NCBI GenBank assembly: GCA_964551135.1
Contig: CAZKAT010000003.1
Coordinates: forward strand, 90,942-154,941
Length of the DNA stretch: 64,000 nucleotides
Direction of reading: 5' to 3'
From: an uncultured Gammaproteobacteria bacterium
GTDB lineage: Bacteria > Cyanobacteriota > Vampirovibrionia > LMEP-6097
How positions within the stretch are numbered: position 1 is the stretch's first letter; the number at the start of each line of letters is the position of its first letter. A program made the translations under genes and the position numbers. The notes beneath the pieces were generated by a model. That model saw only the letters and a list, made by a program, of their open reading frames with translations, had not been told where the DNA came from and ran no database searches. Shown here one piece after another: positions 10,775 to 57,696 of the stretch.

Positions 10775-11824
10775 TTACACAAACGTCGGTTCACCAGCAA
10801 TCTCTAATACTCTTCTAAGTGATTTGTCGATTAAGACTCTGCCTGCACCTAAGACGACGCAATCTAGTGGAGTTTCTGCAACATGCACAGGTACTTCAGT
10901 CTCATGACTAATCATTTCATCTAAACCTTGTAGTAAAGCACCACCACCAGCTAAAACTATTCCTCTGTCATAGACATCAGCAGCTAATTCTGGAGGTACT
11001 CGCTCTAGAGTACGCTTAACTGATTCAACAATAGAAGATAGAGGCTCTGACATAGCTTCTCTAACTTCTGGTCTGCTAATAAGAACTGTTCTAGGAAGAC
11101 CATTAAGTAAGTTAAGTCCTCTTACTTCTAACTGATCAGCATCAGAAGCATCACTGATCTTAAACGCTGACCCTAGCTTGATCTTAACGTTCTCTGCAGT
11201 AGTCTCTCCGATAGAGAGGTTATAAACTTTCTTCATGTAAGTGACTATAGATTCATTCAATTCATCACCAGCGATTCTAATACTTTCAGAAATAACAATT
11301 CCAGAAAGCGATATCACCGCTACTTCAGTAGTACCACCACCAATATCAACGATCATACTACCGATAGGATCTGCTACTGCAAGTCCAGCACCAATCGCTG
11401 CTGCCATCGGCTCTTCAATTAAAAACACTTGACCAGCGCCAGCGTTCTCTGCTGCTTCACGCACAGCTCTTCTTTCTACTTCAGTAATGCCGCTTGGAAT
11501 ACCAACAGCGATTCTTGGTTTACTAAGTGGTCTGAAAGCTCCTTTACCAGTAGCTTTCTCTAGAAAATATCTGAGCATCATTTCAGCGTGACGGAAATCA
11601 GCAATCACTCCATCTCTTAAAGGTCTAGTAGCAATTATATGATTCGGTGTACGTCCAAGCATCGCTCTTGCCTCTTCACCAACAGCAAGAACTTCGCCGC
11701 TATCGCGACTCACTGCTACTACACTTGGCTCCCTTAGGATAATCCCCTGCTCAGTGCAGACAAGTGTGTTTGCTGTCCCTAAATCTATGCCAATGTTCTT
11801 CGAAAATCTACTAAAAAAACTCAT
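10775..11824 (-). CDS. mreB: rod shape-determining protein MreB
   Basis: Actin-like ATPase motifs: IGIDLGTANTLV, DIGGGTTEVAVIS. Confidence 0.95.
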   Translation of the reverse strand: MSFFSRFSKNIGIDLGTANTLVCTEQGIILREPSVVAVSRDSGEVLAVGEEARAMLGRTPNHIIATRPLRDGVIADFRHAEMMLRYFLEKATGKGAFRPLSKPRIAVGIPSGITEVERRAVREAAENAGAGQVFLIEEPMAAAIGAGLAVADPIGSMIVDIGGGTTEVAVISLSGIVISESIRIAGDELNESIVTYMKKVYNLSIGETTAENVKIKLGSAFKISDASDADQLEVRGLNLLNGLPRTVLISRPEVREAMSEPLSSIVESVKRTLERVPPELAADVYDRGIVLAGGGALLQGLDEMISHETEVPVHVAETPLDCVVLGAGRVLIDKSLRRVLEIAGEPTFV

Positions 11825-11984
11825 AAGTTCTATTCTATAGGATTGGCGGAGAAAATATCTATAAATATCTATAGGAAAAAATTAATTAATTGGACCTGAG
11901 TTTAAAGTTTCTTTGGTTATTATCTGTTGTCTATTTGACATTATGAAGAGCCTAAACAGATCAATGTTACTATAAACTCTCATA

Positions 11985-12890
11985 ATGTCCTTTAGAGAAG
12001 ACCTCTTAACCAAAGATTTCATCATCACCGCGGAGATCAACCCACCTAAAGGCTCTCATCCTGAGCAAGCTATAAAGAACGCTAAGAAAATTAATAACTT
12101 AGTTTCAGCGATTAATATTACCGACAACTCGGGTGCTGCCATGAAGATGTGCTCGCTAGTCTTAAGTTATTTAATACAAAAAGAAGCTGGTGTTAATGCT
12201 ATTTGGCAGATGACCTGTAGAGATCGCAATCGTTTAGCTTTACAATCTGATCTACTAGGTGCTGCTGCTTTAGGACTTTCTAATTTATTGATCTTGCGGG
12301 GTGATGCTCCTTTAGCACCAATTAAAGAAGAGAAATGTTTTGATTTAAGTACAGAAGATCTAATTCAAGCTGTCACGGCTCTTAAGTCAGGGAAAGATTT
12401 AGATGCTAATGAACTTAAAGAAGGTGTGCCAGATTTCTGCATGGCTGCTGCTGCTCATCCTGGAGTACCCAACCTTGCAGCACAAAAAGAAACAATGTTG
12501 AAACGCTTAGACATGGGAATAGAGTTTTTCCAAACTCAAATTTGTTTTGAGAAATCACAAATAGATAAATTCGTGGAATCTATTGGCGATGAACTTGCTT
12601 CTAAAACTATCTTAGGTATTACTCCACTAAAGACCCTCGCTCAAGCTAACTTCATGAATAAAAATATCTTCGGGGTTACCGTTCCAGACTTACATCTAGA
12701 GCTTATGCAAAAAGCCCTTGGAGATCTAGATCCTAAATCTGAACAAGGGAAAGCCGCTCAGCAAGAACAAGGTCTGGAATTGGCTCGAGATTTAGTCTCT
12801 TACATTAAAACCACGCCACTTAAAGGCATACATGTTATGGCGATTGGTCAAGAAGATATTTTAGATCAAGTAATTAAATCTATAAATTAA
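11985..12890 (+). CDS. metF: 5,10-methylenetetrahydrofolate reductase
   Basis: MTHFR family N-terminus (FIITAEINPPKG...NITDNSGA...QMTCRDRNR...LILRGD). Confidence 0.85.
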   Translation: MSFREDLLTKDFIITAEINPPKGSHPEQAIKNAKKINNLVSAINITDNSGAAMKMCSLVLSYLIQKEAGVNAIWQMTCRDRNRLALQSDLLGAAALGLSNLLILRGDAPLAPIKEEKCFDLSTEDLIQAVTALKSGKDLDANELKEGVPDFCMAAAAHPGVPNLAAQKETMLKRLDMGIEFFQTQICFEKSQIDKFVESIGDELASKTILGITPLKTLAQANFMNKNIFGVTVPDLHLELMQKALGDLDPKSEQGKAAQQEQGLELARDLVSYIKTTPLKGIHVMAIGQEDILDQVIKSIN

Positions 12891-13870
12891 TGCCTAGGAC
12901 ACCACTAGTTCAAATCAAAAATCTAAGCAAGCAATTTGCACTAGAGAAGAATTTCTTTGGTAAAGCTAGCAAAACACTTAAAGCGGTAACTAATTTAAAC
13001 CTGGATATCTATCCAGGAGAGTGTCTAACCATAGTTGGTGAATCTGGTTGCGGCAAATCTACCACCGCTAGATTAATACTGAAACTTATAGAAGCAGATC
13101 ACGGCGAAGTAATATTTCAAGGAGAAGATGTTCTGAAACTCAATGGACAAGCATTAAGAGATAAACGTCAGGATATGCAAATGATATTCCAGAATCCTTT
13201 CTCCAGCCTTGATCCACGTTATAAGATTTACGATAGTATCGCTGAACCACTTAGAGTGCACAAGCGTGGCAACGAAGAACAGATTAGAGCAAGAGTTTAT
13301 GAATTACTGAAACTAGTAGAATTAGACGAAAGTATCGCAAATAAATTCCCACATCAATGCTCTGGTGGTCAAAATCAAAGAGCCTGTATAGCAAGAGCCC
13401 TAGCTCTCAATCCTAAGTTTATTATCGCTGATGAAGCTGTAAGTGCTCTAGATGTCTCTATTCAATGGAAGGTATTACGCCTGCTAAAACGTTTACAGAC
13501 AGAATTAGGAATAAGCTTTCTCTTCATTGCTCACAATCTTGGCGTAGTGAAATATATCGCAGATAGAGTAGCGGTGATGTATTTAGGTGAGATAGTAGAG
13601 ATCGCCACTAAAGAAGAATTGTTTGCTAATCCTTTACATCCTTATACTAAGGCTCTCTTAAGCTCTGCTCCCGTAGCTGATCCTAGACAAAGAGACAGAG
13701 AGAAGATTTTACTTGAAGGAGATGTTCCCAAACCAACAGACATACCTTCGGGCTGTCCTTTCCATACTAGATGCCCTATTGCTGTTGCTGAATGTAGTAG
13801 GGTGAAGCCTGCGCTAGAAGACAAGGCTAATGAGCATTTTGCAAGTTGTTTATTGGTAAACAAAGGTTAA
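12890..13870 (+). CDS. ABC transporter ATP-binding protein, oligopeptide/dipeptide (OppF/DppF) type
   Basis: Walker A GESGCGKST, signature CSGGQNQR, Walker B IIADEA. Cys-containing C-terminal oligopeptide-ABC extension. Confidence 0.85.
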   Translation: MPRTPLVQIKNLSKQFALEKNFFGKASKTLKAVTNLNLDIYPGECLTIVGESGCGKSTTARLILKLIEADHGEVIFQGEDVLKLNGQALRDKRQDMQMIFQNPFSSLDPRYKIYDSIAEPLRVHKRGNEEQIRARVYELLKLVELDESIANKFPHQCSGGQNQRACIARALALNPKFIIADEAVSALDVSIQWKVLRLLKRLQTELGISFLFIAHNLGVVKYIADRVAVMYLGEIVEIATKEELFANPLHPYTKALLSSAPVADPRQRDREKILLEGDVPKPTDIPSGCPFHTRCPIAVAECSRVKPALEDKANEHFASCLLVNKG

Positions 13871-13915
13871 TATTTTAGCTATTAAGTGGTATAATTAACA
13901 ATAAAGGATAAAATA

Positions 13916-14221
13916 TTGCCTCTTAATTTATATACTCCTCAAGAGCTTCTTGAAAAAATAGCCATTAAGGCCAAACAAGTTAGATTAAATCAAAATCTTA
14001 CTCAAGAAGGATTAGCCTCTAGATCAGGAGTTAGCTTAGGTAGCGTGAAGAGATTTGAGAGAACCGGTCAAATATCTTTTGAGTCACTTTTAAAAATATC
14101 TCTGGTTCTGAATTCATTAAGTGATTTTGAAAATATTTTTGATGAGAATACTAAACCAATCAAAACCTTAGATGAAATCATTGCAGAACCTACAAAAAAA
14201 CTACGAGGTAGAATCAAATGA
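13916..14221 (+). CDS. hipB: HTH (XRE-like) antitoxin, HipB-like
   Basis: 101 aa. HTH segment LTQEGLASRSGVSLGSVKRFE. 4-bp overlap with hipA. Confidence 0.6.
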   Translation: MPLNLYTPQELLEKIAIKAKQVRLNQNLTQEGLASRSGVSLGSVKRFERTGQISFESLLKISLVLNSLSDFENIFDENTKPIKTLDEIIAEPTKKLRGRIK

Positions 14222-15453
14222 AAATCAATCCTCTACAATTATTAAAAGTATATTTGATCTTTTCAGAGAAGAAAAAGTTTTTTGTAGGTAGACTGGCTCT
14301 CAAAGATCAACAAATCTGGTTTGAATATGACAAAGAGTTTCTTCAAGAGAATTTGGAAATATCACCATTCAAACTTCCCTTAGGACCAAAACCCCTATCT
14401 TCTAAAGAGCAAATATTTAGTGGCTTACACGGTGTTTTCAATGATAGTCTTCCAGATTCTTGGGGGCAATTATTAGTAGACCGCAAATTGAGAAACTCAG
14501 GTATTGATCCAGGAAATCTTTCAGCCTTGGACAGACTATCCATAGTAGCGCAGCATGGAATGGGTGCCTTAAGTTATGAACCAGAACAAACTATATATGA
14601 TTACAAACACGAGAAATTAGATTTGGATAATTTATATAAAAGTTCACTTGAAATATTACAAGATAGCAGAAGTGAATCAATTGATGAATTGTTTTCTTTC
14701 AGCGGTTCCATTGGCGGCGCCAGACCGAAAATAACCGTATTAGTTAATAAGGACAGAAAAAAAATCCTTCATTCTCGAACAGAAAAAATCAAACACAATG
14801 ATTATGAACATTGGTTAATCAAATTCTCTGCCAACCAGGATCTTAGTGACCTTGGATTAATTGAATATGCTTACAGTTTAATGGCAAAAAAAGCCAACAT
14901 AGAAATGTCTGATACTTATTTATTCAACACCAAGAAATCAAATTATTTCGGTACCAAACGCTTTGATAGAAATGGTGATAAAAGATTACACATTCATAGC
15001 AGCTCAGGTCTTTTACATAGCGATTATAGATATCCAAGTCTAGATTACGAGAATCTATTTAAAGCAACTTTATTACTCACTAAAGATGCAAATGAACTTA
15101 GCAAACTTTATAGAATTACTGTATTTAACGTACTAGCTCATAACAGGGACGATCATAGTAAAAATTTCTCTTTTTTAATGGATGAACAAGGCACTTGGAA
15201 ACTATCTCCAGCTTATGATTTAACTTACTCAAACGGTCCCGGAGGCGAGCATAGTATGATGGTTTGCGGTGAAGGTAAAAATCCTGGAATAGAGGAACTT
15301 ACCAAACTTGCTAAAAAATTTAGCATAAAAAATTATCAAGAAATCATAGAAGCCACTAAGGATGCTGTATCACAATGGAAAAATATTGGGAAAGATATTG
15401 GAGTTTCAAAAGATTCCATAAAGCTTATAAGCGGGAAATTACTATATAATTAA
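14218..15453 (+). CDS. hipA: HipA family serine/threonine kinase toxin
   Basis: N-terminal HipA coupling domain. C-terminal catalytic motif HNRDDHSKNFSFLMDEQGTWKLSPAYDL. Confidence 0.85.
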   Translation: MKINPLQLLKVYLIFSEKKKFFVGRLALKDQQIWFEYDKEFLQENLEISPFKLPLGPKPLSSKEQIFSGLHGVFNDSLPDSWGQLLVDRKLRNSGIDPGNLSALDRLSIVAQHGMGALSYEPEQTIYDYKHEKLDLDNLYKSSLEILQDSRSESIDELFSFSGSIGGARPKITVLVNKDRKKILHSRTEKIKHNDYEHWLIKFSANQDLSDLGLIEYAYSLMAKKANIEMSDTYLFNTKKSNYFGTKRFDRNGDKRLHIHSSSGLLHSDYRYPSLDYENLFKATLLLTKDANELSKLYRITVFNVLAHNRDDHSKNFSFLMDEQGTWKLSPAYDLTYSNGPGGEHSMMVCGEGKNPGIEELTKLAKKFSIKNYQEIIEATKDAVSQWKNIGKDIGVSKDSIKLISGKLLYN

Positions 15454-15456
15454 GCT

Positions 15457-16320
15457 ATGTCCAACACTGAGAGTCAAAACCCCAATACCAAAAATCTTGA
15501 CAAGCTCAGTACTGAAGAGTTTGTAAGCACTTGGATTAATGAAGACAAAGCAGTATGGACAGCCTTAGATAAAGCTTCCACTCAAATCGCTAAAGCCATC
15601 GATATAATTTACAATCAATTTAAGGCAATTCAAGATGAATTAGAACCTTATGATCCAGGTCATCCAACAATCTACAAGGGTCCAAGATTGTTTTATATAG
15701 GAGCCGGTACTAGTGGGCGTTTGGGGGTACTCGATGCATCTGAGTGTCTACCAACATTCTCTTCACATCCAGACATGGTTCAAGGAATAATTGCTGGTGG
15801 TGATAAAGCTATCCGGCATCCAGTAGAAGGTGCTGAAGATGACGAAGCAGCAGGCTATAAGATCATCTCTGAGACTCTGAACCCCCAAGATACACTTGTA
15901 GCTGTTAGTGCAAGTGGTGGTGCACCTTATGTCATAGGTGCTCTGAAAGCTGCTAAGGAAAAGGGTGCTAAAACAATTGCTATAGCTAATAATCCTGATG
16001 CTTTAAGTTTTAAATATGCTGAACATTATATCTTTTTAGATACTGGCGCTGAGGTACTTGCAGGCAGCACTCGTCTTAAAGCTGGCACCGCTCAGAAAAT
16101 TACTCTCAATATGATCTCCACAGGATTAATGGTTAAACTTGGAAAAGTTATAGGAAATTTAATGGTGGATGTACAGGCTACTAATATTAAACTTAAGAAG
16201 AGAGCAATAGGATTAGTTAAACACTTAAATAATTGTTCAGAAGAAGAAGCAATAGAAGCTTTAGAGAAATGTCAATACAAAGTGAAAAAGTGCCTGAGTG
16301 ACCGAGGGGTGAGTGACTGA
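15457..16320 (+). CDS. murQ: N-acetylmuramic acid 6-phosphate etherase
   Basis: SIS domain with GAGTSGRLGVLDASECLPTF. 287 aa. The last ~8 codons run into a GC-rich hairpin element. Confidence 0.85.
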   Translation: MSNTESQNPNTKNLDKLSTEEFVSTWINEDKAVWTALDKASTQIAKAIDIIYNQFKAIQDELEPYDPGHPTIYKGPRLFYIGAGTSGRLGVLDASECLPTFSSHPDMVQGIIAGGDKAIRHPVEGAEDDEAAGYKIISETLNPQDTLVAVSASGGAPYVIGALKAAKEKGAKTIAIANNPDALSFKYAEHYIFLDTGAEVLAGSTRLKAGTAQKITLNMISTGLMVKLGKVIGNLMVDVQATNIKLKKRAIGLVKHLNNCSEEEAIEALEKCQYKVKKCLSDRGVSD

Positions 16321-46567: not shown

Positions 46568-47674
46568 GTGACGACGACTATGAATCAATTTTCCGAAACA
46601 GAAGTTAATAATCCCGAAGAGATTATAAGTAGCATTGATAGAGCTACTAAGAATGGTTTTGTGGCACATGATTTGAACAATAAAGTTATACGCTTTAGTA
46701 GCAAAATGCAGGAAGTTACTGGCTGGACTGAAGCAGAAGTTATGGGGAAGGACGTAAAAGAACTATATCAAGTACAAGATGCTTGTAATATTCAAGATCC
46801 CGATGCTGTTACTGAGCATGTGGTGACTTTATTTACTAAGGATGGTAAACAAATCAAATTAGCTGTAAGACAGACAGGCATTCTTGGTAAAGAAGGGGAA
46901 GCTGTCGGATGTTTAATGTTTTTTGTTATCGAAAACTATAATAAAAACTTAGATAGAGCTCAATCAGAATTCATTAGTACTGTATCGCATGAATTAAGAA
47001 CTCCAATCACTAGTATCAAAGGGTTTGCTTCTACTTTACTTAGTACCAAAAAAGAACTAGAAAAAGAGAAACGCGATAAATATATTCGTATTATTCAAAA
47101 CCAAGCTGATAGACTTTCTCGCTTAGTTGAAGATTTACTTGCAGTATCAAGACTAGAAAGTAAAAAATTACAATTAACTATTCATCCAGTAAAACTTTTA
47201 CCAATAGTAGACTATGTCGCTGAAGTTGTTGGTTCTAAGCATAAGTTCTCCCATGAAGTGAAGATGGATTGTCCTAAAGATTTACCAGAAGTTTGGGTAG
47301 ATAAGGATAGACTAGAACAGATCTTAACTAATCTAATTGATAATGCTTTTAAATATTCACCTGAATCTAAGATTATAGACATCAGCATCAGAGTCGATAA
47401 ACTCAACTATCAAGACATGGTTAGAATAGATATAACTGACTATGGGATTGGGATTGAAGCTGAAAACCAACAAAAAATCTTCACTAAGTTTAGTAGACTC
47501 GATAATCCTCTTACTAGAGTTACTGAAGGTACTGGACTAGGATTGTATATTAGTCGTTCTCTTACTAAGATACAAGGTGGTGAATTAAAGCTTAGTAGCA
47601 CCAAGGGTAAAACTACATTCTCTGTATATCTTCCATTAACAGCTCATAAGGGTGGTGAAATATGGTGGGATTAA
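46568..47674 (+). CDS. cytoplasmic PAS-domain sensor histidine kinase
   Basis: PAS-like N-terminus. H-box HELRTPITSIKGF. HATPase N and G boxes (LIDNAFKYS, GTGLGLYI). No TM. Confidence 0.85.
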   Translation: MTTTMNQFSETEVNNPEEIISSIDRATKNGFVAHDLNNKVIRFSSKMQEVTGWTEAEVMGKDVKELYQVQDACNIQDPDAVTEHVVTLFTKDGKQIKLAVRQTGILGKEGEAVGCLMFFVIENYNKNLDRAQSEFISTVSHELRTPITSIKGFASTLLSTKKELEKEKRDKYIRIIQNQADRLSRLVEDLLAVSRLESKKLQLTIHPVKLLPIVDYVAEVVGSKHKFSHEVKMDCPKDLPEVWVDKDRLEQILTNLIDNAFKYSPESKIIDISIRVDKLNYQDMVRIDITDYGIGIEAENQQKIFTKFSRLDNPLTRVTEGTGLGLYISRSLTKIQGGELKLSSTKGKTTFSVYLPLTAHKGGEIWWD

Positions 47675-48924
47675 TTCCCAAGGATCATATACTGCATGTT
47701 CTTGGTAAGAGTAACGAGCCTAGTATTGTCTATAATGAAGAACTAAGAAAGTTTTGCGGTGAAGAAAACATTGAGCTTGCAGAAACCATTCAAACTAAAG
47801 GTTTCAAAGAAATTATTAGAAAGTTCAGACCAGAGATACTTTTAATAGAGGAAGAAGCGTTTAATCCTGAAGAACCTTATCGTTCTAGATCATGCCAACC
47901 ATTCAAGTTAGTTATAACCAAGAACCAAAACAAAGACAAGATTTTTGAGTATCTCAAACTTGGTGCTGATGAAGTTATTAGTAAAGATCTAAGTGCTGAA
48001 GAATTATTTCTTAAGTTCTTCTCCATTCTAAGACGTAAGAAAGTATTGGAACTATCTCAATTAACCAATCTACCTAGTATTAATAAAACTTATACAGTCA
48101 TAGAACATTGCCGCAAGCATCTTAGCGACTGGGTTGTAGTGCATGTAGATATCAGATATTTTCAGAGTTACAACACAATGTATGGGGTTTCCAAAGGTGA
48201 TGATGTTATCAGAGCAGCTGCTAAAGTCATGCAAAATACTCTCAGTACAATCAAGAGCTCTGATCATTTTATTGGTTACTTGGGTAGAGATAGTTTCTTA
48301 ATTATCAGTGATTCTAATTCCCTAGATACTATAATCCATAATATTCAAGTCAATTTCAAGAAGACTCTTAGCGATCACTACAATCAATCAGATTACACTA
48401 ATAACTACATCATCTCTTCTGCTCCTAACAAAGTCAGACGCAGAGAGGGTTTACTTGAGCTAAGTATTGGTTACTGTTCTAAAATTGATAGAAATTTCCT
48501 TTCTGGAACAGATATCATAGAGCAAGCTATAAAAAACAAAAAAGATCCTGGCTCCAAAAACAAAAGAGTATTAATACTTGAAGATGATGCCGATTTTGCA
48601 GAATTAATACAAGAGACTCTTTCACTAGAAGGTAATGAAGCTATGGTATCTGCGGGCTTAGATCATATTATTAATGAAGTAGCGGAGTTTCAACCAAGAA
48701 TTTTGATTCTTGAAGCTAGCCATATAGGTCACCAGAATTTTATACCTCTATGTGAAGATCTTAATAAATATAAAGCTGAAATAGGAATGAAGATTTTAGT
48801 AGCCACTGAAATCCCTGGTTATCAAAACTTCCTTGCTTCTGGTGCAGATGTCTATATACCTAAGCCTTATGAGATTGAGACTCTGCTAAAAGAAGTTCGT
48901 AGATTGAGATTCGATTACAGTTAG
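47662..48924 (+). CDS. response-regulator-like protein with degenerate GGDEF domain between two receiver-like domains
   Basis: GGDEF fold (VVVHVDIRYFQSYNTMYGVSKGDDVIRAAAKV...IGYLGRDSFLII) with GRDSF in place of GGDEF. Both receiver-like domains have Glu at the expected phospho-Asp position (LLIEEEAF and ILILEASH). Confidence 0.55.
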   Translation: MVGLIPKDHILHVLGKSNEPSIVYNEELRKFCGEENIELAETIQTKGFKEIIRKFRPEILLIEEEAFNPEEPYRSRSCQPFKLVITKNQNKDKIFEYLKLGADEVISKDLSAEELFLKFFSILRRKKVLELSQLTNLPSINKTYTVIEHCRKHLSDWVVVHVDIRYFQSYNTMYGVSKGDDVIRAAAKVMQNTLSTIKSSDHFIGYLGRDSFLIISDSNSLDTIIHNIQVNFKKTLSDHYNQSDYTNNYIISSAPNKVRRREGLLELSIGYCSKIDRNFLSGTDIIEQAIKNKKDPGSKNKRVLILEDDADFAELIQETLSLEGNEAMVSAGLDHIINEVAEFQPRILILEASHIGHQNFIPLCEDLNKYKAEIGMKILVATEIPGYQNFLASGADVYIPKPYEIETLLKEVRRLRFDYS

Positions 48925-49007: not shown

Positions 49008-49084
49008 GGCAGCTGTGGCCAAGTGGTTAAGGCTCCGGTTTGTGGTACCGGCATTCGTGGGTTCAACTCCCATCAGCTGCCCCA
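49008..49084 (+). tRNA. tRNA-His (anticodon GTG) with encoded G-1 and CCA
   Basis: Cloverleaf read by eye: G-1 plus acceptor GCAGCTG/CAGCTGC, D arm, anticodon stem CCGGT/ACCGG with loop TTGTGGT, T arm GTGGG-TTCAACT-CCCAT, discriminator C, CCA. Confidence 0.85.
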
Positions 49085-49254
49085 TTTTAATTACCGTAGG
49101 TATATAAAGAGACAACTGTATGTGATCTAACTACGGTTGTCACATGTCTACCGGCATGAGTGGACGAGGGGACATTGAGAACCGTCGTCTATAAATGAGT
49201 AAGCTAGACCCCCGAAGCAGGCAAGAAAAGCGCAAAGCGTTTTTCGCAGACTAT

Positions 49255-49278
49255 ACTCCCATCAGCTGCCCCATTTTA
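49255..49278. repeat. 24-bp perfect direct repeat of the tRNA-His 3' end (att-site-like scar)
   Basis: ACTCCCATCAGCTGCCCCATTTTA occurs at 49066-49089 (the tRNA 3' end) and again at 49255-49278. Confidence 0.8.
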
Positions 49279-49283
49279 TAACT

Positions 49284-49829
49284 TTATGAACGAATAAGTA
49301 TCCTATGTAAATTATCTGCTAGCTCTGGTAATAATTGTTCTGCTTGCTTTAACCTTTCTTCACCATGAACTTGATGCACAGCATCTCTAAATCTAACCAA
49401 AAGATTTTGAACTTCTTTCAGTTTTAAAATTTCTGTTTCTTCTGGAAAAAGTTTTTTCTCTTCATTTTTTTTGTGTTGATTCCAGTGACCCACTGGATCT
49501 AAATCATGGTTAAATTTTGGATTATCAAAACAAACTCTATAATTACTCTCAATGCCTTGCTCCGAGCGATAGAAAAATATTTTTGTATCAGGGTCACCTA
49601 ATGTTCTAATTAGAGCATCTAGTTCTTTCAGTTGATCAGTTGCCTCTTTACTATTTACACCCCAAACACTCATTACCATCGGTACTAATTCTGCAATATC
49701 TCGTACTGAGTGATAGAAAGCATACTTAAGCTCATAAGGATAAGGGCTAGTAGGCAGAGTTCCACCAATACCGCCAGAAAATTGAGGAGTAGGACGAATT
49801 GGAAGGTTCGCTGTTAACATAAGTTGCAA
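49284..49829 (-). CDS. hypothetical protein
   Basis: 181-aa ORF directly after the att-like repeat. No recognisable motif. Confidence 0.4.
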   Translation of the reverse strand: MQLMLTANLPIRPTPQFSGGIGGTLPTSPYPYELKYAFYHSVRDIAELVPMVMSVWGVNSKEATDQLKELDALIRTLGDPDTKIFFYRSEQGIESNYRVCFDNPKFNHDLDPVGHWNQHKKNEEKKLFPEETEILKLKEVQNLLVRFRDAVHQVHGEERLKQAEQLLPELADNLHRILIRS

Positions 49830-49913
49830 TTATAGCAAAATCTAGGATTAGATCTCCATAATTACCCTTCCAATAGTTTCAATTCAAATTATTTGTGGTA
49901 TAATGAATATATC

Positions 49914-50240
49914 ATGAAAAAAATAACATTAATCATAGCTTTATTTGCGCTAGTTCTTTCTAGCCAACCTGCACAGGCTAATATATTTGGTCAAATCGTT
50001 GGTGGAACTCTTGCAGTTGTACTAGGTGCGCCTCTGGGTGCTGTAGTTGGTTTACCAACCGGTATAGTTAAAGGTGCTGTCGATGGTGTAACTGATCCAT
50101 TAATTCCAACACCAAATATGCCATTAAAAATTCTTGCTGCTCCACTTACTATTCCTCTAGGTATAGTTGTGGGTGCCGTAGTAGGAGTTGGTAAAGGTGC
50201 TGCTGCTGGTGCAAGAATGGGCTATAACATAGTTAACTAA
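49914..50240 (+). CDS. small secreted/membrane glycine-zipper protein
   Basis: Signal peptide MKKITLIIALFALVLSSQPAQA followed by G/A/V-rich GxxxG repeats. The start is taken at the internal Met. Confidence 0.45.
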   Translation: MKKITLIIALFALVLSSQPAQANIFGQIVGGTLAVVLGAPLGAVVGLPTGIVKGAVDGVTDPLIPTPNMPLKILAAPLTIPLGIVVGAVVGVGKGAAAGARMGYNIVN

Positions 50241-50255
50241 AACTATTTCAAAAAT

Positions 50256-50942
50256 CTAGGCGAAGTCGCCTTGATAATACAAAAAATCAGGCAATGTTTT
50301 ACCTCTGGGTGCTGTTGATCTTGGTTCCTCATAACCCGGTTCATCAGGTAAAGGTGCTGGTATCACATCTACAGGTTGTCGCCATAAGTTTTTTAATGAT
50401 GGCTCCCCACGTTTAGGTATAGGACTTGACTGCTTTTCAATACTGATAGGAAGTGGATTTGGAGCAAAGGGAGGACTTATTTCTAATCCTTTTTGAACAC
50501 CCAATGCACAATGCTGTAAAAATCTATAGGATTTTATATTAGAATTTAGAGAATTGTTTTTCAAATCCAAATTCACAGACGAAAATTTTTTCGAACCTAA
50601 AAATAAATTATTTAATTTTTTCCAAATAAAATTATTCTCTGGTGGAATACTACGCTGATCTGCTAATACAGCAAAACTTGCCAATTCCTTTGACAGACAA
50701 AACTCTAATAAAGCTCCATCTATATCAGCAGACTTTTCAATTTGATTTAATTTATTTTGTAAATTTTCAAGTTGAATTTCATACTTTTGTTTTAGTGACA
50801 TATTTTCAGATAGATGTAAGTCTTTCTGATTAACAATATTAGTAGGAGATTTAGGAACCACTGTATCATCAACCCAAGCTGGCATTAAACTTGCTCCTGC
50901 CATATAGGCTAAAAATGGTGTTGATAGCCAACTCGTTTTCAT
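50256..50942 (-). CDS. hypothetical secreted protein with Pro-rich C-terminus
   Basis: N-terminal hydrophobic segment and C-terminal PPFAPNPLPISIEKQSSPIPKRGEP. 228 aa. Confidence 0.4.
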   Translation of the reverse strand: MKTSWLSTPFLAYMAGASLMPAWVDDTVVPKSPTNIVNQKDLHLSENMSLKQKYEIQLENLQNKLNQIEKSADIDGALLEFCLSKELASFAVLADQRSIPPENNFIWKKLNNLFLGSKKFSSVNLDLKNNSLNSNIKSYRFLQHCALGVQKGLEISPPFAPNPLPISIEKQSSPIPKRGEPSLKNLWRQPVDVIPAPLPDEPGYEEPRSTAPRGKTLPDFLYYQGDFA

Positions 50943-51047: not shown

Positions 51048-51278
51048 ATGCCTGACTATATCTATATTTTCATAAATTCTTACTTGCCAATCTTAGTAGC
51101 TTTAGTTCTAGGTTTATTTATAGGCAGAATCACAAAAACCAAGAGTAAATCCTCAGTGCTGACCGGTTCTAGCGATGAACAGAAACTCAATAATGAAGTA
51201 CTTAAAGATCAAGTAAAACAGCTTGAATCTAAAATTAAAACACTAGAGAAAGCTTTAGAGATTACCAGTAAAAATTAA
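51048..51278 (+). CDS. small TM plus coiled-coil protein
   Basis: 76 aa. One TM (LPILVALVLGLFIG), then a heptad-like helical tail. Confidence 0.3.
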   Translation: MPDYIYIFINSYLPILVALVLGLFIGRITKTKSKSSVLTGSSDEQKLNNEVLKDQVKQLESKIKTLEKALEITSKN

Positions 51279-52093
51279 AGTCCAGCCCTTGGATGGAAGT
51301 CCTTATATGCCTTCGCAAGTCTATAATCTTGTTCTTTAACAAATGGTCTATAAAAATTACTTAGCTTAATAGCAAGCTTCTCTTCGATTTGCTCCAAGCT
51401 TAAACCTTGGTCTAAAAGATTCATAATCCTACTGCGTTTAAGGTAACTATGTTTCAATTCATAATTTTGCAAAATCTTAGGAATATCTGTTTCTATAAAT
51501 AATGGATCTTTCATAGTCATAGATTGAGTTTCTGGAAGCATTTTTGGTCTGTATTCTTTTAAATATTCTTTCATTTGCTTAGCTAGACTATCAGAAATCT
51601 CCAATCTAGTAGCTCGATAATTAAAACTATTACTCGCTAAATTATAATTTTCCAGATTCAAAGCAGTTAGTTCATCTTGTGAAAGATACAATTCATAAAT
51701 TACCTGAACTATTAACTGTTCATAATTAAATTCTGTTCCAAATCTATCAAAAATTTCGTTCTCTTTATAATAACTAAAAGCATCATGATTAAAGGAGAAC
51801 TTAAGCTTCCAAAAAGGGTTATTGTCCAAGTTCAACCAATTAATAAATTGACGTAAACTACTTAACTTAGAAACAAAACTTGATTCCATATATTTTTCTT
51901 CTAATTCATTTATATATCGAGTAATAAATTTAGCTTGAACACTGGCATCATCATTGTCTTTAAGATAGTCTATAAAAGCTTTAATATCTCTATTAATATT
52001 AGCTATAGTACCTGCTGACTTATTAGTACTCTCTTCCAAATACTGAATAAAATACTTTAGTAATTCTTCATTGAGAACGTAATTATTGTGCAT
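51275..52093 (-). CDS. tyrosine-recombinase-like protein (XerD-like N-terminal SAM-like domain; catalytic residues apparently degenerate)
   Basis: N-terminus LKYFIQYLEESTNKSAGTIANINRDIKAFIDYLKDN resembles the Xer/integrase core-binding domain. The region expected to carry the first catalytic Arg reads LSQDELTALNL, and the C-terminal HxxR/Y boxes are poorly conserved. Confidence 0.4.
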   Translation of the reverse strand: MHNNYVLNEELLKYFIQYLEESTNKSAGTIANINRDIKAFIDYLKDNDDASVQAKFITRYINELEEKYMESSFVSKLSSLRQFINWLNLDNNPFWKLKFSFNHDAFSYYKENEIFDRFGTEFNYEQLIVQVIYELYLSQDELTALNLENYNLASNSFNYRATRLEISDSLAKQMKEYLKEYRPKMLPETQSMTMKDPLFIETDIPKILQNYELKHSYLKRSRIMNLLDQGLSLEQIEEKLAIKLSNFYRPFVKEQDYRLAKAYKDFHPRAGL

Positions 52094-52292
52094 TAGTATT
52101 CTTATTTTTTTGAATTTCTTTTACTAACTCTCGAACATCATCATCAAGTCCATGCTTCTCAACAAACTTAACTATTAAAGGTGTATTCGGACTCCAGCCA
52201 ATATTAAGCAGATGACGCAAATGGTCCAAAGGGCCCATGTTCTTATTTAAAGTACTTGACTCTGCGTCTATAACTTCTTCTTCAGGAGGCAT
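52083..52292 (-). CDS. small hypothetical ORF
   Basis: 69 aa. Overlaps the start of the recombinase-like gene. Coding status uncertain. Confidence 0.25.
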   Translation of the reverse strand: MPPEEEVIDAESSTLNKNMGPLDHLRHLLNIGWSPNTPLIVKFVEKHGLDDDVRELVKEIQKNKNTNAQ

Positions 52293-52306
52293 ATTGTAAT
52301 TCTAAC

Positions 52307-52918
52307 TTACTTAGCTAGTTCAGCACCATTAGTGATCTGCAGCTTCTGCTTAATTTCTTCAAGAGTCATTTCTTTTATAGACTTCTCTTCAATAGATTCT
52401 ATTTCTTCCTTAACCTTATCCTCACGTGTTTGCGTTTCTTCAATTTCAGGAGCTTCCCATATTGATTCATCAGTAAACTGCACTCTCATGATTTCAACAT
52501 AGTAATAAGCATCATCTCTAAAAAACTTATCTTTTTTAAAGTGTATGGATTGCTCTTTACCAACCGGAAGGACATCAATACTATTCACCTCAGTTCTTTG
52601 ATCAACCCAGTTCTGGAACGGGAGCTTCAGAGTCCAAGCAACTCTATAAGCCATAATATCCTTATCACCAATATTCTTAACCTTCACACTGAAGTCATTA
52701 AAAATACCGGTGAGTGTCTTAGTTTTCTCAGAACCTTTATCAGCAACTTTAGCCTCCAATATCTCTACTGGTGCATCTGGATGATTAATAATTTTTACTG
52801 TTTGAATATGTTTCTTTTTAAATGGAATAAGAAACTTCTCAAACTCCAGAAAACTTTTAGCCGGTTGAGCTAAAGACAAGAAACAAACAACTATAACTAA
52901 TGGTATAAATTTTCTCAT
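52307..52918 (-). CDS. hypothetical secreted protein encoded immediately downstream of the secretin
   Basis: Signal peptide MRKFIPLVIVVCFLSLAQPAKS. Its start overlaps the secretin stop. Acidic helical C-terminus. Confidence 0.45.
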   Translation of the reverse strand: MRKFIPLVIVVCFLSLAQPAKSFLEFEKFLIPFKKKHIQTVKIINHPDAPVEILEAKVADKGSEKTKTLTGIFNDFSVKVKNIGDKDIMAYRVAWTLKLPFQNWVDQRTEVNSIDVLPVGKEQSIHFKKDKFFRDDAYYYVEIMRVQFTDESIWEAPEIEETQTREDKVKEEIESIEEKSIKEMTLEEIKQKLQITNGAELAK

Positions 52919-55152
52919 TAATATGTTGCTCCAGCTGCTTGTAAATAGACCTCTTCAACTTCATCTCCTGTTCTAATATTAGGAGTGATAAGTATTAAAA
53001 GTTCTCTTAAGTTTTTATTTCTTGAATTATTACCAAATAAGCTTCCAATAATAGGTATCTTACTCAATACTGGAATTTCATTATTTCTCGTGTAACCTTT
53101 TCTATCATCAAACAATCCACCAATAGCAATAGTTTCATGATTAACAATTTGAATCTCAGAAGATATTCTTCTTCTAACGGTTTGCTGAGGTACACCAGTA
53201 GTTGGATCTATAGTACCGTTAACCGATACTTCAACTTCAACCTTAACAGTTACTACTCCACCACCACCTACTATAGGAGTGATATCCATTGAGTTACCAG
53301 CCGTTACTCTGTTAATAGATTGCTGTTGAGCTGCAATAGAACCAGTTCCAATAGCACCAGCTTTATTTAAAACTACGTTTATATCTTGGTCAAAATTAAT
53401 CTTCGCACTCTTACCACTAGTTACCAAAAGTCTCTGATTAACTTTGATTTGTGCATTGTTATTAGTTTGGGAGAAAGTAGGATTATTAGCAAAAATCCCC
53501 ATGTATTTTGATCCTAAATTTACATTAAAGCCAGTTGATGGTGCCGTAGTCCCAGATCCAGCAGCAGTAACATTACCAATCTTACCTATAGTGAATGGAG
53601 TCTGATAGAGATTGTGTGATTGCGTGAAGTCTTTAGATATTTCTACTAATTTCACAACAAGTTCTACTTGTGGGATCGGCTTGTCAATAGTTCTAATAAA
53701 ATCATAGAGCTGAGTTAACTGTTGCTTAGAACCATCTGCAATAAAGGCGTTCTGATTAGAGCTAACTTGTACTAAGTTTTTTAATTCCGCTGGTAACAGC
53801 TTATTAGCTTCTTGTGCTTCCAAGTATTTAAGAGGGAAGAGTACAGTTCTACTATCAAGTGAGAAGTTCTTATTAGTAGAACTGTAAACAACATAGGTCT
53901 CTCCCTTCTTAGTGTAATTAAATTGGCTGCCTGCAAACAATAATTCAAAAGCATCATCTATATTTACTCCTCTAACTTTCAGAGTAATTCTATCAGTAGG
54001 ATTAGCAGTCATTACCACATCCACACCATAAGTATTAGCAAGGTCTTTAATGATACTTGATAAATCTTCGTTATCATAAGTTAAGTCTGCATATCGCTCT
54101 TCCAGCGGTAATGTTAAATCTATATCAGAAGTATCAAAACCCGCAATAAGACTAGTTCCTTTACCACCTTGTTTTTTAAGTATTGTGTAATTATCACCAC
54201 TTCTACGGAAATCTACATCAGCAGCATCAACTAAACTTAAAAATGCTTTAGTAAAGGGTTGATTATTGATTTCAACAACAGAGATAGTATCTCTATCTTG
54301 AACAGATCCGCTGACAGTTATACTTTTACCTGATACTCTTGCCAAAGTTGCAAAAGCATCTCTTGTAGCTATATTTCTTGCAGAGAAATTAACTATAGGA
54401 TCCTCACTAGGAGCTTGTTTTAGAGTAGCTTCCTTTTTAATCGTTCTCTCTCTTTTAGGAATTCCAACTATTTCTATTAACTTCTCAATCTCTTTAAGAT
54501 CTTTAGGATTCTCTGGATTTAAACCTGCAAGTAAATCACCATATTGTGAATATAATCTAGCAAAATCTTCTGGTGTTCTATCAAAAGTGTTAGCTAATTT
54601 GACATAATTTGTTCTTTTCTGTGCTTCTGTCTTCTCTAAATCACGTTGAGCTTTAGCTTTTAAATCAGCATCTATTTTTGCTGCATCCTCTGCTGACTTA
54701 GCTGCTAATGTAGTTTGAGTCGCAGTTGGTATAGTAGTAGTTGTTGTTGTTGTCTTAGCTGGCGTTGTTGTCTTAGCTGGCGTTGTTGTCGTAGTTGTTG
54801 TAGTTTTAGCTGGGCTTGATGTTGTTGTTGGCTTAGCAGGACTTACGGTTACAACAGGTGCGGTCGTTTTAACTGGAGTTGTTACTTGTTTCTTAACAAC
54901 TGGAGTATCTTCCTCTTCTTCATCGTCACCATAGAATCCATTGTCTTCATCATCCCAATCATCATCACTCCAATCGTCATCATCATCAGATGGTTTAGCT
55001 GCAATAAATGGAGTCTTCGCTAATGAAACTGCTGCTATTAATTCTTGTTCTTGAATCTTATAGGGAGTAGGGGTAAAAGAATTAGTTAGCGCAGGCCTAG
55101 CCATGCCAGATAATATTATTAATGCTATGGTGAGTGTTTTGATTCTGCGCAT
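52918..55152 (-). CDS. secretin (GspD/PilQ family) with acidic and Thr/Pro-rich N-terminal extension
   Basis: C-terminal secretin motif IPVLSKIPIIGSLFGNNSRNKNLRELLILITPNI. N0-like domain. Signal peptide. DDDDDWSDDDWDDEDNGFYGDDEEEED and a T/P/A-rich linker (AKTTTTTTTTPAKTTTPAKTTTTTTT). Confidence 0.85.
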   Translation of the reverse strand: MRRIKTLTIALIILSGMARPALTNSFTPTPYKIQEQELIAAVSLAKTPFIAAKPSDDDDDWSDDDWDDEDNGFYGDDEEEEDTPVVKKQVTTPVKTTAPVVTVSPAKPTTTSSPAKTTTTTTTTPAKTTTPAKTTTTTTTIPTATQTTLAAKSAEDAAKIDADLKAKAQRDLEKTEAQKRTNYVKLANTFDRTPEDFARLYSQYGDLLAGLNPENPKDLKEIEKLIEIVGIPKRERTIKKEATLKQAPSEDPIVNFSARNIATRDAFATLARVSGKSITVSGSVQDRDTISVVEINNQPFTKAFLSLVDAADVDFRRSGDNYTILKKQGGKGTSLIAGFDTSDIDLTLPLEERYADLTYDNEDLSSIIKDLANTYGVDVVMTANPTDRITLKVRGVNIDDAFELLFAGSQFNYTKKGETYVVYSSTNKNFSLDSRTVLFPLKYLEAQEANKLLPAELKNLVQVSSNQNAFIADGSKQQLTQLYDFIRTIDKPIPQVELVVKLVEISKDFTQSHNLYQTPFTIGKIGNVTAAGSGTTAPSTGFNVNLGSKYMGIFANNPTFSQTNNNAQIKVNQRLLVTSGKSAKINFDQDINVVLNKAGAIGTGSIAAQQQSINRVTAGNSMDITPIVGGGGVVTVKVEVEVSVNGTIDPTTGVPQQTVRRRISSEIQIVNHETIAIGGLFDDRKGYTRNNEIPVLSKIPIIGSLFGNNSRNKNLRELLILITPNIRTGDEVEEVYLQAAGATY

Positions 55153-55201
55153 AAAAGGGCCTTATACAAGAAGGACGCCACTATCATGCCAGAGTTCCCA
55201 C

Positions 55202-56284
55202 TTATTCTTTTCTAGTTTTATGCTCTAATCTAATTCTTTCAATAATAGCTTTTACTTCATCCTCGGTAGGCCCTCTGCTCTCTTCGACATCATTGTCTGT
55301 ATGATTCACAAAGGTACCACCAACGATTTTAAAATTAGATCCTTCCCAAGGAGTATCAGAAGGCGCTCTGAGTATTTCACCAGTCACACCATCTCGAGGG
55401 TTAAAAGGAACAACAAGTTTAGAAGCTTTAGCATCTTCCAAAGCTGTCTTATCAGCTTCAACGATCTGAGCTTTATTACTTATCTTCTTACCAAATCTTC
55501 TAGTTTTAACTTTACTAGAAGTAGCAGCAAGAGCATAATCAGGTACATCCGTAATAATGTTCATATCCAGAAGCTTTTTCCTTCTGGCTTTTTCTTTCTT
55601 GTCTTCATCAGCTATACGTTTAGCTTCTTCTTTCTCAAATCTCTTTTGTTCTTTTTCTCTTTCACGCTCTAAACGTTTCTGCTCTTTTTCGTTTTCACGC
55701 TCTAAACGCTTCTGTTCACGATCTTTCTTAAGTTCTTCCTTAAGTCTCTGCTTCTCTTTAAGCTTAAATAATTTCTCACGCTCACGATCTTTCTTAAGCT
55801 GTTCTTTTTCACGCTCACGTCTTTGGAGCTCACGCTGATGCTCCTTCTCTCTTTGTAATTTTTCACGTTCGCGTTGCTTAAGAATACGTTCTCTTTCACG
55901 TTCTTTCTGAAGTCTTTCACGCTCACGTTGCTTAAGAAGCTTCTCGCGTTCTCTTTCTTTCTGTAAACGCAACTTCTCACGTTCGCGCTCTCTTTTCTGT
56001 TGATCTTTAGCCCTGGTTTTGCTTAGGATTTTTTTAGCGGGTGCTTTCTTAGACTTAACAAGTGCTTTCTTAGGTTTAGCCTTAACACTAGTTTTTTTAG
56101 CTTTCTTAGATGCTACTGATTTAGAAGTGGACTTAGAGCGCTTCTGATTATCTTCTTTACGCTTTAATGAATAGAGACGTTTACGTTCCAACTCACAATC
56201 TCTACATGAGTTAGGGCGGTACGAGATTTTATTTTTAGCTGTAAGTTTGACTCCGCAAACTGTACAGACGGAGTGGGCTGACAT
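55202..56284 (-). CDS. zinc-ribbon protein with long E/R/K repeat (single-alpha-helix-like) region
   Basis: N-terminal Cys4 (CTVCG...CRDCE), ~150 aa of REREREKL-type repeats, and a globular C-terminus. The underlying nucleotide repeats generate spurious overlapping ORFs on both strands. Confidence 0.6.
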   Translation of the reverse strand: MSAHSVCTVCGVKLTAKNKISYRPNSCRDCELERKRLYSLKRKEDNQKRSKSTSKSVASKKAKKTSVKAKPKKALVKSKKAPAKKILSKTRAKDQQKREREREKLRLQKEREREKLLKQRERERLQKERERERILKQREREKLQREKEHQRELQRREREKEQLKKDREREKLFKLKEKQRLKEELKKDREQKRLERENEKEQKRLEREREKEQKRFEKEEAKRIADEDKKEKARRKKLLDMNIITDVPDYALAATSSKVKTRRFGKKISNKAQIVEADKTALEDAKASKLVVPFNPRDGVTGEILRAPSDTPWEGSNFKIVGGTFVNHTDNDVEESRGPTEDEVKAIIERIRLEHKTRKE

Positions 56285-56379
56285 ATCAGGATTAATTTTA
56301 ACTTATATTTGACTATGGGCCAAGGCCAAACTAACGACTAATGGGCCAAAATAAAATGATTTAATATATTATTTATGAA

Positions 56380-57696
56380 GTGCGCTCCTTAGACTCTATC
56401 AATCCAAGAGAATCTGGCTTGAATTCATTTGATAAAAATGAATTCAGCCAAAAATTAAAAGACTATAGTGAGCAAAACAAAAATCCTAACTATCCAGAAA
56501 ATTATTTAAAAATTCTGGGGCTATTTTTATTAGGACGCTACGACGCTTTAGAGACTCTATTGTCCGAGGATCCAAGCTTAATATCCAGTTACCAAATCAA
56601 AGCTATAAAAATCCTAAATTTAATTCAAAGCAATAAGCCAGTAACAAACCAGGATATATTTCCCTTCAGCTCTCAAGAATTAAATATCCGCAAAAAAATC
56701 TCCAAGAAAATCTCAGCACATATTATTGATTTATATGATGCCATTTCTAAAAATATCAGCAGCATTCCACTCACTAGTGATTTATGGGCACTTAAACCCA
56801 TATTGCCAGAAATAGTTTTTTACTATGGGAAATATATTCTTGAGAATAAAATTAGCAATGAATATAAAAGATTAGAAGAAGAGCTAACTCAAGCTATACC
56901 ATTAACAGAAAACGATGAACTCAATAAAGAGAATGAATTAGAGCAAGTCTATCTTAGAACCTTTTTCTATAGAACCATAGGTGATGCTGCTCAAGCGGAA
57001 GCTGCTCTTTTAAAATATAGAGATATTTACAAACCAGTGGAGCAAGCTGCTCATATTAAATCACAAGCTAATACGACATTCTATCCGCCTGATCAAGTAC
57101 TAAATAATTGGGATAAAATTCTTACTGAAGCTGATGCCATTCAGAAAGAAGTAGAACGCAAAGCTGGACTCTTAAACAGCACTTGCGATTATTTCAAGTG
57201 CAGTGACTGTTGTTCTAATACTTTCCCAGTTATGACTTTAACTGAGTTTAAATTTCTAGAGCAATGGATGAAAGACAATAATTATCCATTAGAAAAAATT
57301 CAAGAACGTTCTGAATTAATTCAACAGGATTATGAAAAAAAATACGGTAAACGATTAACATTAATAGATAAAGAACTAGCAGAGAATGATTTTCGAGGTT
57401 CTGAAAATCCATACAATTACAAATTCTCTTGTCCATTTCTTGAGGGCGGCAAATGTTCTATCTACCATGCTCGTCCTTTAATATGTAGAGGCTTTGGCTT
57501 ATCCACCGATAATAATATTTCAGTAAAAACCTGCAAATATTATTTGGCACAATATAGGCATAATTCGAGTTTGGATAATGAAAGGTATGCCTACGATCTA
57601 CGTGCAGCAGAAATGCTGGCAGCTTCTAGTGATAAATATTTGACCGGTGCAGAACACCTAAAAGGTACGATAGTGGCGTGGTTTTCTAAGAATTAA
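56380..57696 (+). CDS. hypothetical protein with C-terminal YkgJ-type CxxCxxCC zinc/iron-chelating domain
   Basis: CDYFKCSDCCSNTFPV ... CPFLEGGKCSIYHARPLICRGFG. Confidence 0.55.
   Translation: MRSLDSINPRESGLNSFDKNEFSQKLKDYSEQNKNPNYPENYLKILGLFLLGRYDALETLLSEDPSLISSYQIKAIKILNLIQSNKPVTNQDIFPFSSQELNIRKKISKKISAHIIDLYDAISKNISSIPLTSDLWALKPILPEIVFYYGKYILENKISNEYKRLEEELTQAIPLTENDELNKENELEQVYLRTFFYRTIGDAAQAEAALLKYRDIYKPVEQAAHIKSQANTTFYPPDQVLNNWDKILTEADAIQKEVERKAGLLNSTCDYFKCSDCCSNTFPVMTLTEFKFLEQWMKDNNYPLEKIQERSELIQQDYEKKYGKRLTLIDKELAENDFRGSENPYNYKFSCPFLEGGKCSIYHARPLICRGFGLSTDNNISVKTCKYYLAQYRHNSSLDNERYAYDLRAAEMLAASSDKYLTGAEHLKGTIVAWFSKN

Follow-up and report, generated by a model that had tools for sequence, protein, structure and literature searches.

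The window analysed here is a 64,000-nucleotide (nt) stretch of contig CAZKAT010000003.1 (assembly GCA_964551135.1), from an uncultured bacterium that its GTDB lineage places in the Vampirovibrionia, and our subject is a tRNA-His gene within it together with the short DNA segment directly behind it. The 3' end of the gene is repeated downstream, and a first-pass annotation had taken the two copies for the scar of a site-specific integration. The features of this region are as follows.

49009-49084, + strand: tRNA-His(GTG), found by ARAGORN and by the Rfam tRNA model (60.6 bits), with an encoded G-1 at 49008 and an encoded CCA at 49082-49084
49066-49089, + strand: repeat copy 1, tRNA nt 58-76 plus the trailer TTTTA, an exact 24-mer
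49085-49147, + strand: leader of the unit, a degenerate copy of the tRNA-His 5' half, with overlapping inverted repeats at 49093-49099/49131-49137 and 49111-49120/49132-49141
49148-49164, + strand: segment B (CTACCGGCATGAGTGGA), a copy of tRNA-His nt 37-52/53, from alignment to the tRNA
49165-49254, + strand: insert X, 90 nt in the place of the T-loop, with helices P2, P3 and P4 at fixed positions across relatives
49255-49278, + strand: repeat copy 2, or segment C, tRNA nt 58-76 (ACUCCCAUCAGCUGCCCCA, to 49273) plus TTTTA, an exact 24-mer

The 24-mer ACTCCCATCAGCTGCCCCATTTTA occurs exactly twice, at 49066-49089 and 49255-49278 (24/24 identical), and its first copy comprises the last 3 nt of the T-loop, the 3' strand of the T-stem, the 3' strand of the acceptor stem, C73 and CCA. 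Exact matching thus confirms the reported perfect copy of the tRNA-His 3' end beyond a 165-bp spacer (49090-49254). A third copy, which it had been proposed to look for, is absent from the 64-kb window with up to three mismatches allowed (shuffled sequences also gave 0 matches). The spacer was described as non-coding and structured, and it is both: it has no open reading frame (ORF) of 50 aa or more, and its folding energy relative to shuffled sequences gives z = -3.7 on the + strand and z = -0.4 on the - strand. The two inverted repeats noted earlier, ACCGTAG (49093-49099)/CTACGGT (49131-49137) and GACAAC (49111-49116)/GTTGTC (49136-49141), are both present, but their 3' arms overlap and the hairpins are mutually exclusive. 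The spacer matches no RNA family in Rfam; only the tRNA reaches a gathering score in the window, and E-value scans of three variants of the element described below (from the window and the related loci L012 and L037) gave only noise on terminator hairpins.

The 3' 107 bp of the spacer (49148-49254, the copy of tRNA nt 37-52 and the insert) and the second repeat copy belong together as a single conserved unit whose helices covary. Its parts are B, which copies tRNA-His nt 37-52, X, 87-90 nt inserted in place of the T-loop, and C (tRNA nt 58-76 with CCA). A covariance model (R1) built from nine units matches the window unit at 49148-49273 with 107 bits (E = 8e-29). At every locus R1 also matches the real tRNA-His at nt 37-76 with the insert deleted (31-33 bits), which shows the unit to be built from the segments B, X and C. 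The left junction in L003 retains ATTCA and so places the insertion at TTCA^ACU in the T-loop. No cloverleaf is called in the unit by ARAGORN or Rfam, and B, C and the window leader are homologous to tRNA-His; judged by its sequence, the unit is tRNA-derived, yet it is not a tRNA.

B and C together can form a helix that closes the unit, in which GG(C/U)A of B pairs with UGCC of C, and UGA with UCA, leaving CCA free. In the window GGCA (49153-49156) pairs with UGCC (49267-49270) and UGA (49157-49159) with UCA (49262-49264), and GUGG (49160-49163) is the 5' strand of the T-stem. The first four closing pairs (G:C73, G:C72, C:G71 and A:U70) reproduce the acceptor end of tRNA-His, the His-specific G-1:C73 pair among them, because the 5' strand of the tRNA is G-1 G1 C2 A3. 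Relative to the tRNA, B carries a derived UC to GA change at nt 47-48 that adds two further pairs. G42-C73 is present in 18/19 units, G43-C72 in 16/19, a pair between nt 44 and G71 in 18/19 and U46-A67 in 19/20. Five of seven minimum-energy folds show the closing helix, a three-way junction with one P2 arm and one P3/P4 arm, and a CCA tail.

The leader also derives from the tRNA. A local alignment of the window leader to tRNA nt 2-52 scores 31, compared with a maximum of 28 among 300 shuffles; the leader thus aligns with the whole 5' half, indicating that the unit family descends from a duplicated tRNA-His gene. In most relatives the same position holds a strong rho-independent terminator hairpin followed by ~45 nt with remnants of the D-arm (e.g. 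AGTGGTTGAG of L011). Leader and B are 89% identical between the window and L002, whereas third codon positions of the flanking gene are only 62% identical. A short helix in the leader resembling an anticodon stem (CGGT/ACCG; window 49093-49141, L002 11430-11480) has a compensatory G-C to T-A change in L002, and the long GACAAC...GTTGTC hairpin keeps 8 of its 10 pairs there.

Within insert X of the window, P2 pairs 49165-49171 with 49209-49214 around a variable apical region, P3 is a weak helix of AGGC (49219-49222) with GACU (49249-49252), and P4 is a hairpin of 49225-49233 with 49237-49245 and an AAA loop. Across units, P2 (unit positions ~18/~62) exists in seven versions, six of them of 6-8 bp (CGAGGGG/CCCCCG, TACGACGG/CCGTCGTA, TAGGATGG/CCATCCTA, GCGAGG/CCTCGC, GTGAGG/CCUCAC and GAAAGGG/CCCUUUC) and the seventh, in L222, a 4-bp GGGT/ACCC. 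P3 (70/98) has four versions, or five counting that of L238 (ACGCAUC/GAUGCGU, AGACAUC/GAUGUCU, AUGCACC/GGUGCAU and, in L238, GGGCU/AGCCC), and is shrunk to AGGC/GNCU in type-1 units, that of the window included; P4 (~78/90) has at least six. All versions of the three helices are complementary, with three G.U pairs and zero A.C pairs on the tRNA-sense strand. The helices were also read straight from the sequences, because the model-fitted alignment misplaces one strand in some rows. In an alignment of 15 units fitted to the model, 87.6% of cells are paired, compared with 30-52% after sliding the 3' partners, nine pairs show two-sided changes compared with 0-5 in the slid controls, and none of 500 shuffles reaches the observed covariation score. 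Comparing the window with L002, X itself has 62% identity, equal to that of third codon positions in the flanking gene, and by this comparison its sequence is drifting at about the neutral rate while keeping P2, P3 and P4 through compensatory changes. An argument that X had been replaced between the window and L002, being only 62% identical, fails since silent sites are equally diverged. A by-eye check for hammerhead, k-turn and bulge-helix-bulge intron motifs found none consistent across variants.

The gene upstream of tRNA-His (47662-48924) encodes a GGDEF and receiver protein whose homologues are named Melainabacteria or Caenarcaniphilales, and a response-regulator/GGDEF gene followed by tRNA-His recurs at 25 or more related loci, the encoded proteins ranging from 97% to 45% identity. 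Units lie behind tRNA-His in at least 14 of the related loci (flanking-protein identity 46-94%), with 0 to 5 tandem copies per locus, only directly 3' of the tRNA gene and in most species each preceded by a terminator. The comparison of relatives proposed in the first-pass annotation thus shows the second repeat copy to be part of a conserved element, an outcome which that annotation had itself named as refuting its reading. In L002, L003, L007, L037, L043 and L044 a second copy of the 3' end of the locus's tRNA-His lies 189-304 bp downstream, the sequences between the copies are homologous to the window spacer, and L012 has an array of four tandem copies and a truncated one. Searched with R1, the 672 kb made up of the window and these loci contain complete units only directly 3' of tRNA-His; outside this set R1 also identifies units in L222, L225/226, L227 (four of them, identical) and L238, and in L013 a unit begins at the contig end. 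Truncated or degenerate copies are common (L043 at 4476-4589, the first unit, u1, of L044, L225 and L011), and the arrays of L012 and L227 have a truncated unit at their end, which is more readily reconciled with unequal crossing-over than with integration.

Units also evolve together with the tRNA beside them. At nt 38/43/44, B agrees with the host tRNA in 36 of 39 comparisons (equalled by 2 of 100000 permutations), which could reflect gene conversion or selection on B to pair with the partners of the tRNA. Insert types are discordant with the host tree: type 1b of the window recurs in L007 (61%) and L222 (75%), and the window's nearest relatives, L229, L002 and L037, have type 1a. Mixed ancestral arrays that were lost differentially are compatible with this pattern, as is exchange between lineages. 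L227 has its four units followed by a truncated one, and L228, with an identical flanking protein, has a truncated unit only; the difference is either real variation or assembly collapse.

At 8190-8300 in L225, a unit with a shortened repeat copy (CATCAGCT|TTCCC) is followed by a second, divergent insert-like fragment (CCCGTGG TCGTGAGAAAACC ... CCCACGG, then a hairpin), so arrays can mix insert types. Many metagenome contigs of the clade end 25 to ~350 bp after tRNA-His, as in L004, L010, L013, L016, L037 (which stops within its second unit) and L039; the L239 contig ends ~7 bp past tRNA-His, and the L240 contig, in which no tRNA-His was detected, ~90 bp past the upstream gene. Assembly breaks caused by tandem units, or strain-level variation, are probably the explanation.

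We favour the interpretation, with a probability of about 0.5, that the unit is an undescribed tRNA-His-derived gene for a tRNA-like small RNA, whose copy number changes by recombination between repeats. It would have arisen as a tandem copy of tRNA-His in which a structured insert of ~90 nt replaced the T-loop, and would be expressed from the tRNA-sense strand as a tRNA-like RNA of ~120 nt (~49153-49273), in the window perhaps co-transcribed with tRNA-His. Its ends resemble those of tRNA-His and for that reason may be made by the tRNA-processing machinery, and the product could act as a mimic, decoy or alternative substrate for factors that read the acceptor end (HisRS, RNase P or the CCA-adding enzyme). 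Changes in copy number and precise loss would result from homologous recombination among the repeats of the tRNA 3' end and the terminators, and the identity of the 24-mer copies would have the same cause; the repeat would also supply extra attachment-sequence copies to mobile elements using tRNA-His. A more elaborate model, which we regard as quite unlikely, makes this a new class of tRNA-like RNA: a mimic of the tRNA-His acceptor/T-stem minihelix (G-1:C73, CCA) with a three-way junction for a T-loop, matured by RNase P and 3' trimming, recognized and perhaps histidylated by HisRS, and serving as a decoy, a sensor or a non-ribosomal aminoacyl carrier whose level is tuned by expansion and contraction of the array. 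In a bolder variant, the tRNA-identical segments B and C might be guides that pair with the tRNA-His gene or its 5' half, which would explain their co-evolution with the host tRNA.

Several observations weigh against a small RNA gene. Inspection of the leader for a sigma-70 promoter gave nothing convincing that is conserved, only weak -10-like hexamers that precede B by 5-11 nt in some species. The pairs of the closing helix hardly vary, both of its strands being of tRNA origin, and they therefore demonstrate compatibility and not covariation; the covariation counts themselves rest on ~12 distinct sequences in an alignment fitted to the model. The minimum-energy fold of the window's own unit contains a competing pairing of 49160-49167 with 49185-49192 that takes up the 5' strand of P2, and folding z-scores prefer the + strand in only 6 of 9 variants, such that strand asymmetry is not decisive. 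An RNA by itself does not explain the concerted evolution of B with the tRNA. The unit is also dispensable, for L229, the closest relative (97%), retains no more than a decayed remnant and several lineages have no unit, tRNA-His being followed directly by a 76-aa ORF in L009, L010 and L040-42.

Some of these points would be expected of a functionless relic, that is, a partial tRNA-His copy, left by an old integration or a tandem duplication, that received foreign DNA in its T-loop and whose number unequal crossing-over has since passively raised and lowered, the block being selfish or neutral tandem DNA. Decay in L229, absence from L009, L040-42 and others, the frequency of truncated and degenerate copies (L043, L044, L225, L011), the homogeneous L227 array, which points to recent amplification, and a promoter that is not demonstrated all agree with this. 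However, the hosts are near-saturated at silent sites (62% third-position identity at 94% protein identity) and the helices are still complementary, P2, P3 and P4 through at least 6, 4 and 6 sequence versions respectively and at fixed positions; the leader has remained 89% conserved between the window and L002, and neutral DNA would not hold this architecture from 94% to 46% host identity. We consider a relic rather improbable.

The location behind a tRNA gene also calls for comparison with mobile DNA, because attachment sites classically lie in tRNA genes, from the T-loop to the 3' end. Large serine recombinase elements abut tRNA-His in L005, L012, L014, L016 and L230/231, so the earlier suggestion of integration into tRNA-His holds in that the gene is a true integration hot spot in relatives, but the spacer of the window is not a decayed attP site or island remnant: its 3' part belongs to the covarying unit conserved at 14 or more related loci, and the unit is separate from the elements that use the site. 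Insert X is absent from the serine recombinase elements of the relatives and from their distant viral relatives, and a link between the unit and these elements was rejected, none of them carrying X. No recombinase consistently adjoins the units.

The main rival to the small-RNA reading is a miniature, non-autonomous integrative element (of a cis-mobilizable kind) or structured recombination site, acted on by a recombinase in trans. A circle of C-leader-B-X would insert into the T-loop/3' end of tRNA-His, arrays would result from repeated integration, and the helices would be features of DNA (a folded single strand, a cruciform or protein-binding arms). The repeat does span the classic attachment location, tRNA-His is a hot spot for serine recombinase elements (L005, L012, L014, L016, L230), and the repeat copy belonging to the unit has itself received other DNA in L002 and L043. 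Patchy presence across the clade, the discordance of types 1a/1b with the host tree, and the four units of L227 against none complete in L228 are likewise as expected of an element that moves, although the last of these could be assembly collapse. Flanking repeats are present. No autonomous X-bearing element was found among the relatives' serine elements or in the viral contigs, in which only chance 14-mer matches were found and the pattern GTGGA joined to the repeat gave 0 matches. BLAST searches of the spacer against phages and plasmids returned nothing relevant, and no unit lies away from tRNA-His in the 672 kb. A circle of 190-230 bp is very small for recombinase synapsis, and the truncated array ends of L012 and L227 are better explained by unequal crossing-over. 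A DNA site would also leave unexplained the acceptor-like closing helix with its CCA, the substitutions in B that extend this helix, and the excess of G.U over A.C pairs. A miniature element is unlikely.

The serine recombinase regions occupy 11415-14590 in L012 (recombinase gene 11415-13013), 11418-15669 in L005 and 6048-10062 in L230. The recombinases are ~530 aa, the 3' ends of their genes overlap the last bases of tRNA-His, and they are accompanied by primase-like genes of the Prim-Pol/DUF3987 or DUF5906 type; their distant viral relatives adjoin tRNA-Thr and tRNA-Gly. The ends of the L012 element have inverted copies of GATTGGGGAATCTGAGAGTAAA that resemble attP half-sites. Between this element and the first unit, at 14583-14785, is a perfect 19-bp inverted repeat (TGGGGCGACTTTGCGCGCC and its complement) around ~165 nt, which has the appearance of a miniature inverted-repeat transposable element (MITE) at the tRNA end. 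In L002, accessory DNA at 11806-16183 lies between the unit and the core genes and encodes AbiEi/AbiEii, a YhcG (PD-(D/E)XK) nuclease and an MNT/HEPN pair; the AbiEi/AbiEii and YhcG-type genes are on a 3.8-kb segment between the second and third copies of the tRNA end, and MNT/HEPN follows. In the third copy (15392-15408) the T-loop is of a variant seen in other species (TTCAAGT), and this copy is followed by sequence like the left end of serine recombinase elements. L043 has a 905-aa ORF with a faint LmuB-like (Lamassu) match at 1768-4485, between a complete and a degenerate second unit.

Downstream of the unit the window contains a variable segment and a conserved gene cluster, including the following.

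49284-50942, both strands: variable accessory segment, not part of the unit, with ORFs of 181 aa (-), 115 aa (+) and 228 aa (-)
51275-52093, - strand: Xer-like ORF, 272 aa, matching an N-terminal SAM-like domain only, 37-85% identical in relatives
52918-55152, - strand: secretin, 744 aa, its secretin domain preceded by FecR_C and STN domains, located among the small ORFs of a conserved cluster

The three accessory ORFs have no match in Pfam, NCBIfam, PHROGs or PADLOC; the segment is absent from L002, and the 181-aa ORF alone is shared with L229 (77%). The core genes that follow (51048-57696) are collinear and identically oriented in L002, L012, L015 and L045, where protein identities fall as low as 28-62%: a 76-aa ORF (51048), the Xer-like ORF, ORFs of 69 and 203 aa, the secretin, a 360-aa ORF and a CxxCxxCC protein (ending at 57696). 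The 69-, 203- and 360-aa ORFs beside the secretin have no family matches. Domain scans detect no catalytic domain in the Xer-like protein, which, from its sequence, may be an inactive recombinase fold in another use; a role as a locus-specific integron-like recombinase was considered and dropped given the core synteny and the lack of a detectable catalytic domain.

These genes bear directly on the proposal that the 24-mers are attL and attR of a decayed island, with either the 165-bp spacer or the DNA downstream to ~56.3 kb as its body. The perfect direct repeat of the tRNA 3' end, the accessory-looking small ORFs at 49.3-50.9 kb and the use of the site by mobile elements in relatives all speak for such an island. 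However, only 49.28-51.05 kb varies among close relatives, and 51.0-57.7 kb is core synteny down to 46% identity, so most of the 49.3-56.3 kb region once thought to be island is not; the degenerate recombinase-like gene and orphan secretin assigned to it are both members of the core cluster. There is also no distal repeat in the window, and the spacer is homologous to units at 14 or more other loci. Such an island is very improbable.

Known systems that share parts of this organization were compared with the unit, and literature searches returned nothing on such units. As a pair of island attachment sites the repeats have the direct repeat of a tRNA 3' end, but there is no integrase or cargo between them, units are conserved at 14 or more loci, and empty sites exist too. 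The unit is like attL/attR islands and cis-mobilizable elements in having a tRNA 3' repeat that begins in the T-loop, a short non-coding segment between copies, and a tRNA gene used by mobile elements, and differs in that a covarying structure is fused to tRNA nt 37-52, is found clade-wide and forms homogeneous arrays with no integrase. A dispersed MITE or IS200/IS605-type element was rejected, since hairpins are present but all copies, in the 672 kb and in loci added later, are at tRNA-His, with one in the 64-kb window; so was an integron attC site or cassette array, there being no integron integrase, near-identical units that lack ORFs, and a three-way junction rather than a single imperfect hairpin. 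A homing guide of a CRISPR-associated transposon, a TnpB omega-RNA and a bridge RNA were rejected for the lack of partner genes among the neighbours within ~10 kb and of an Rfam scaffold match, and transfer-messenger RNA (tmRNA), including the two-piece form, because ARAGORN finds none and there is no Ala identity.

Several RNAs are built on a tRNA chassis, including the tRNA-like domain of tmRNA, YrlA (bacterial, Y-RNA-like) and viral 3' tRNA-like structures such as the histidine-accepting tobamovirus type. Like these, the unit joins non-tRNA helices to a helix that resembles an acceptor stem and carries a 3' CCA, and its design imitates the end of one specific tRNA. In contrast to them it has no sequence or model match, its helices replace the T-loop, it mimics tRNA-His (G-1:C73), and its acceptor 5' strand has been recruited from the anticodon-stem/variable region. 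Like tRNA pseudogenes and tandem duplicates it comes from a duplicated tRNA gene, with a decayed 5' half, and is called by neither ARAGORN nor the Rfam tRNA model, but here the 3' two-fifths and a three-helix module are maintained by selection and evolve in concert with the functional gene. The 3'ETS-leuZ RNA of Escherichia coli, from a tRNA 3' external transcribed spacer, is a short unstructured sponge released by processing; it too is a non-coding RNA directly downstream of a tRNA gene, and in the window the putative RNA may likewise be co-transcribed with the tRNA, whereas the unit has ~120 nt, multiple helices and a tRNA-like end of its own, and in most species a terminator separates it from the tRNA. 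By analogy the unit is in its design most like a tRNA-like RNA on a tRNA chassis, and it is in none of the described families.

Reading a repeat of a tRNA 3' end as an integration scar would in this case misannotate a conserved RNA-like element and ~6 kb of core genes. The locus offers a natural case of repeats that vary in copy number and evolve in concert at an integration hot spot. If expressed, the units would constitute an undescribed family of structured, tRNA-derived RNAs in the non-photosynthetic sister lineage of the Cyanobacteria. They would also illustrate how a tRNA duplicate can be remade into a different RNA, the 3' strand of the anticodon stem becoming the 5' strand of a new acceptor and a junction taking the place of the T-loop.

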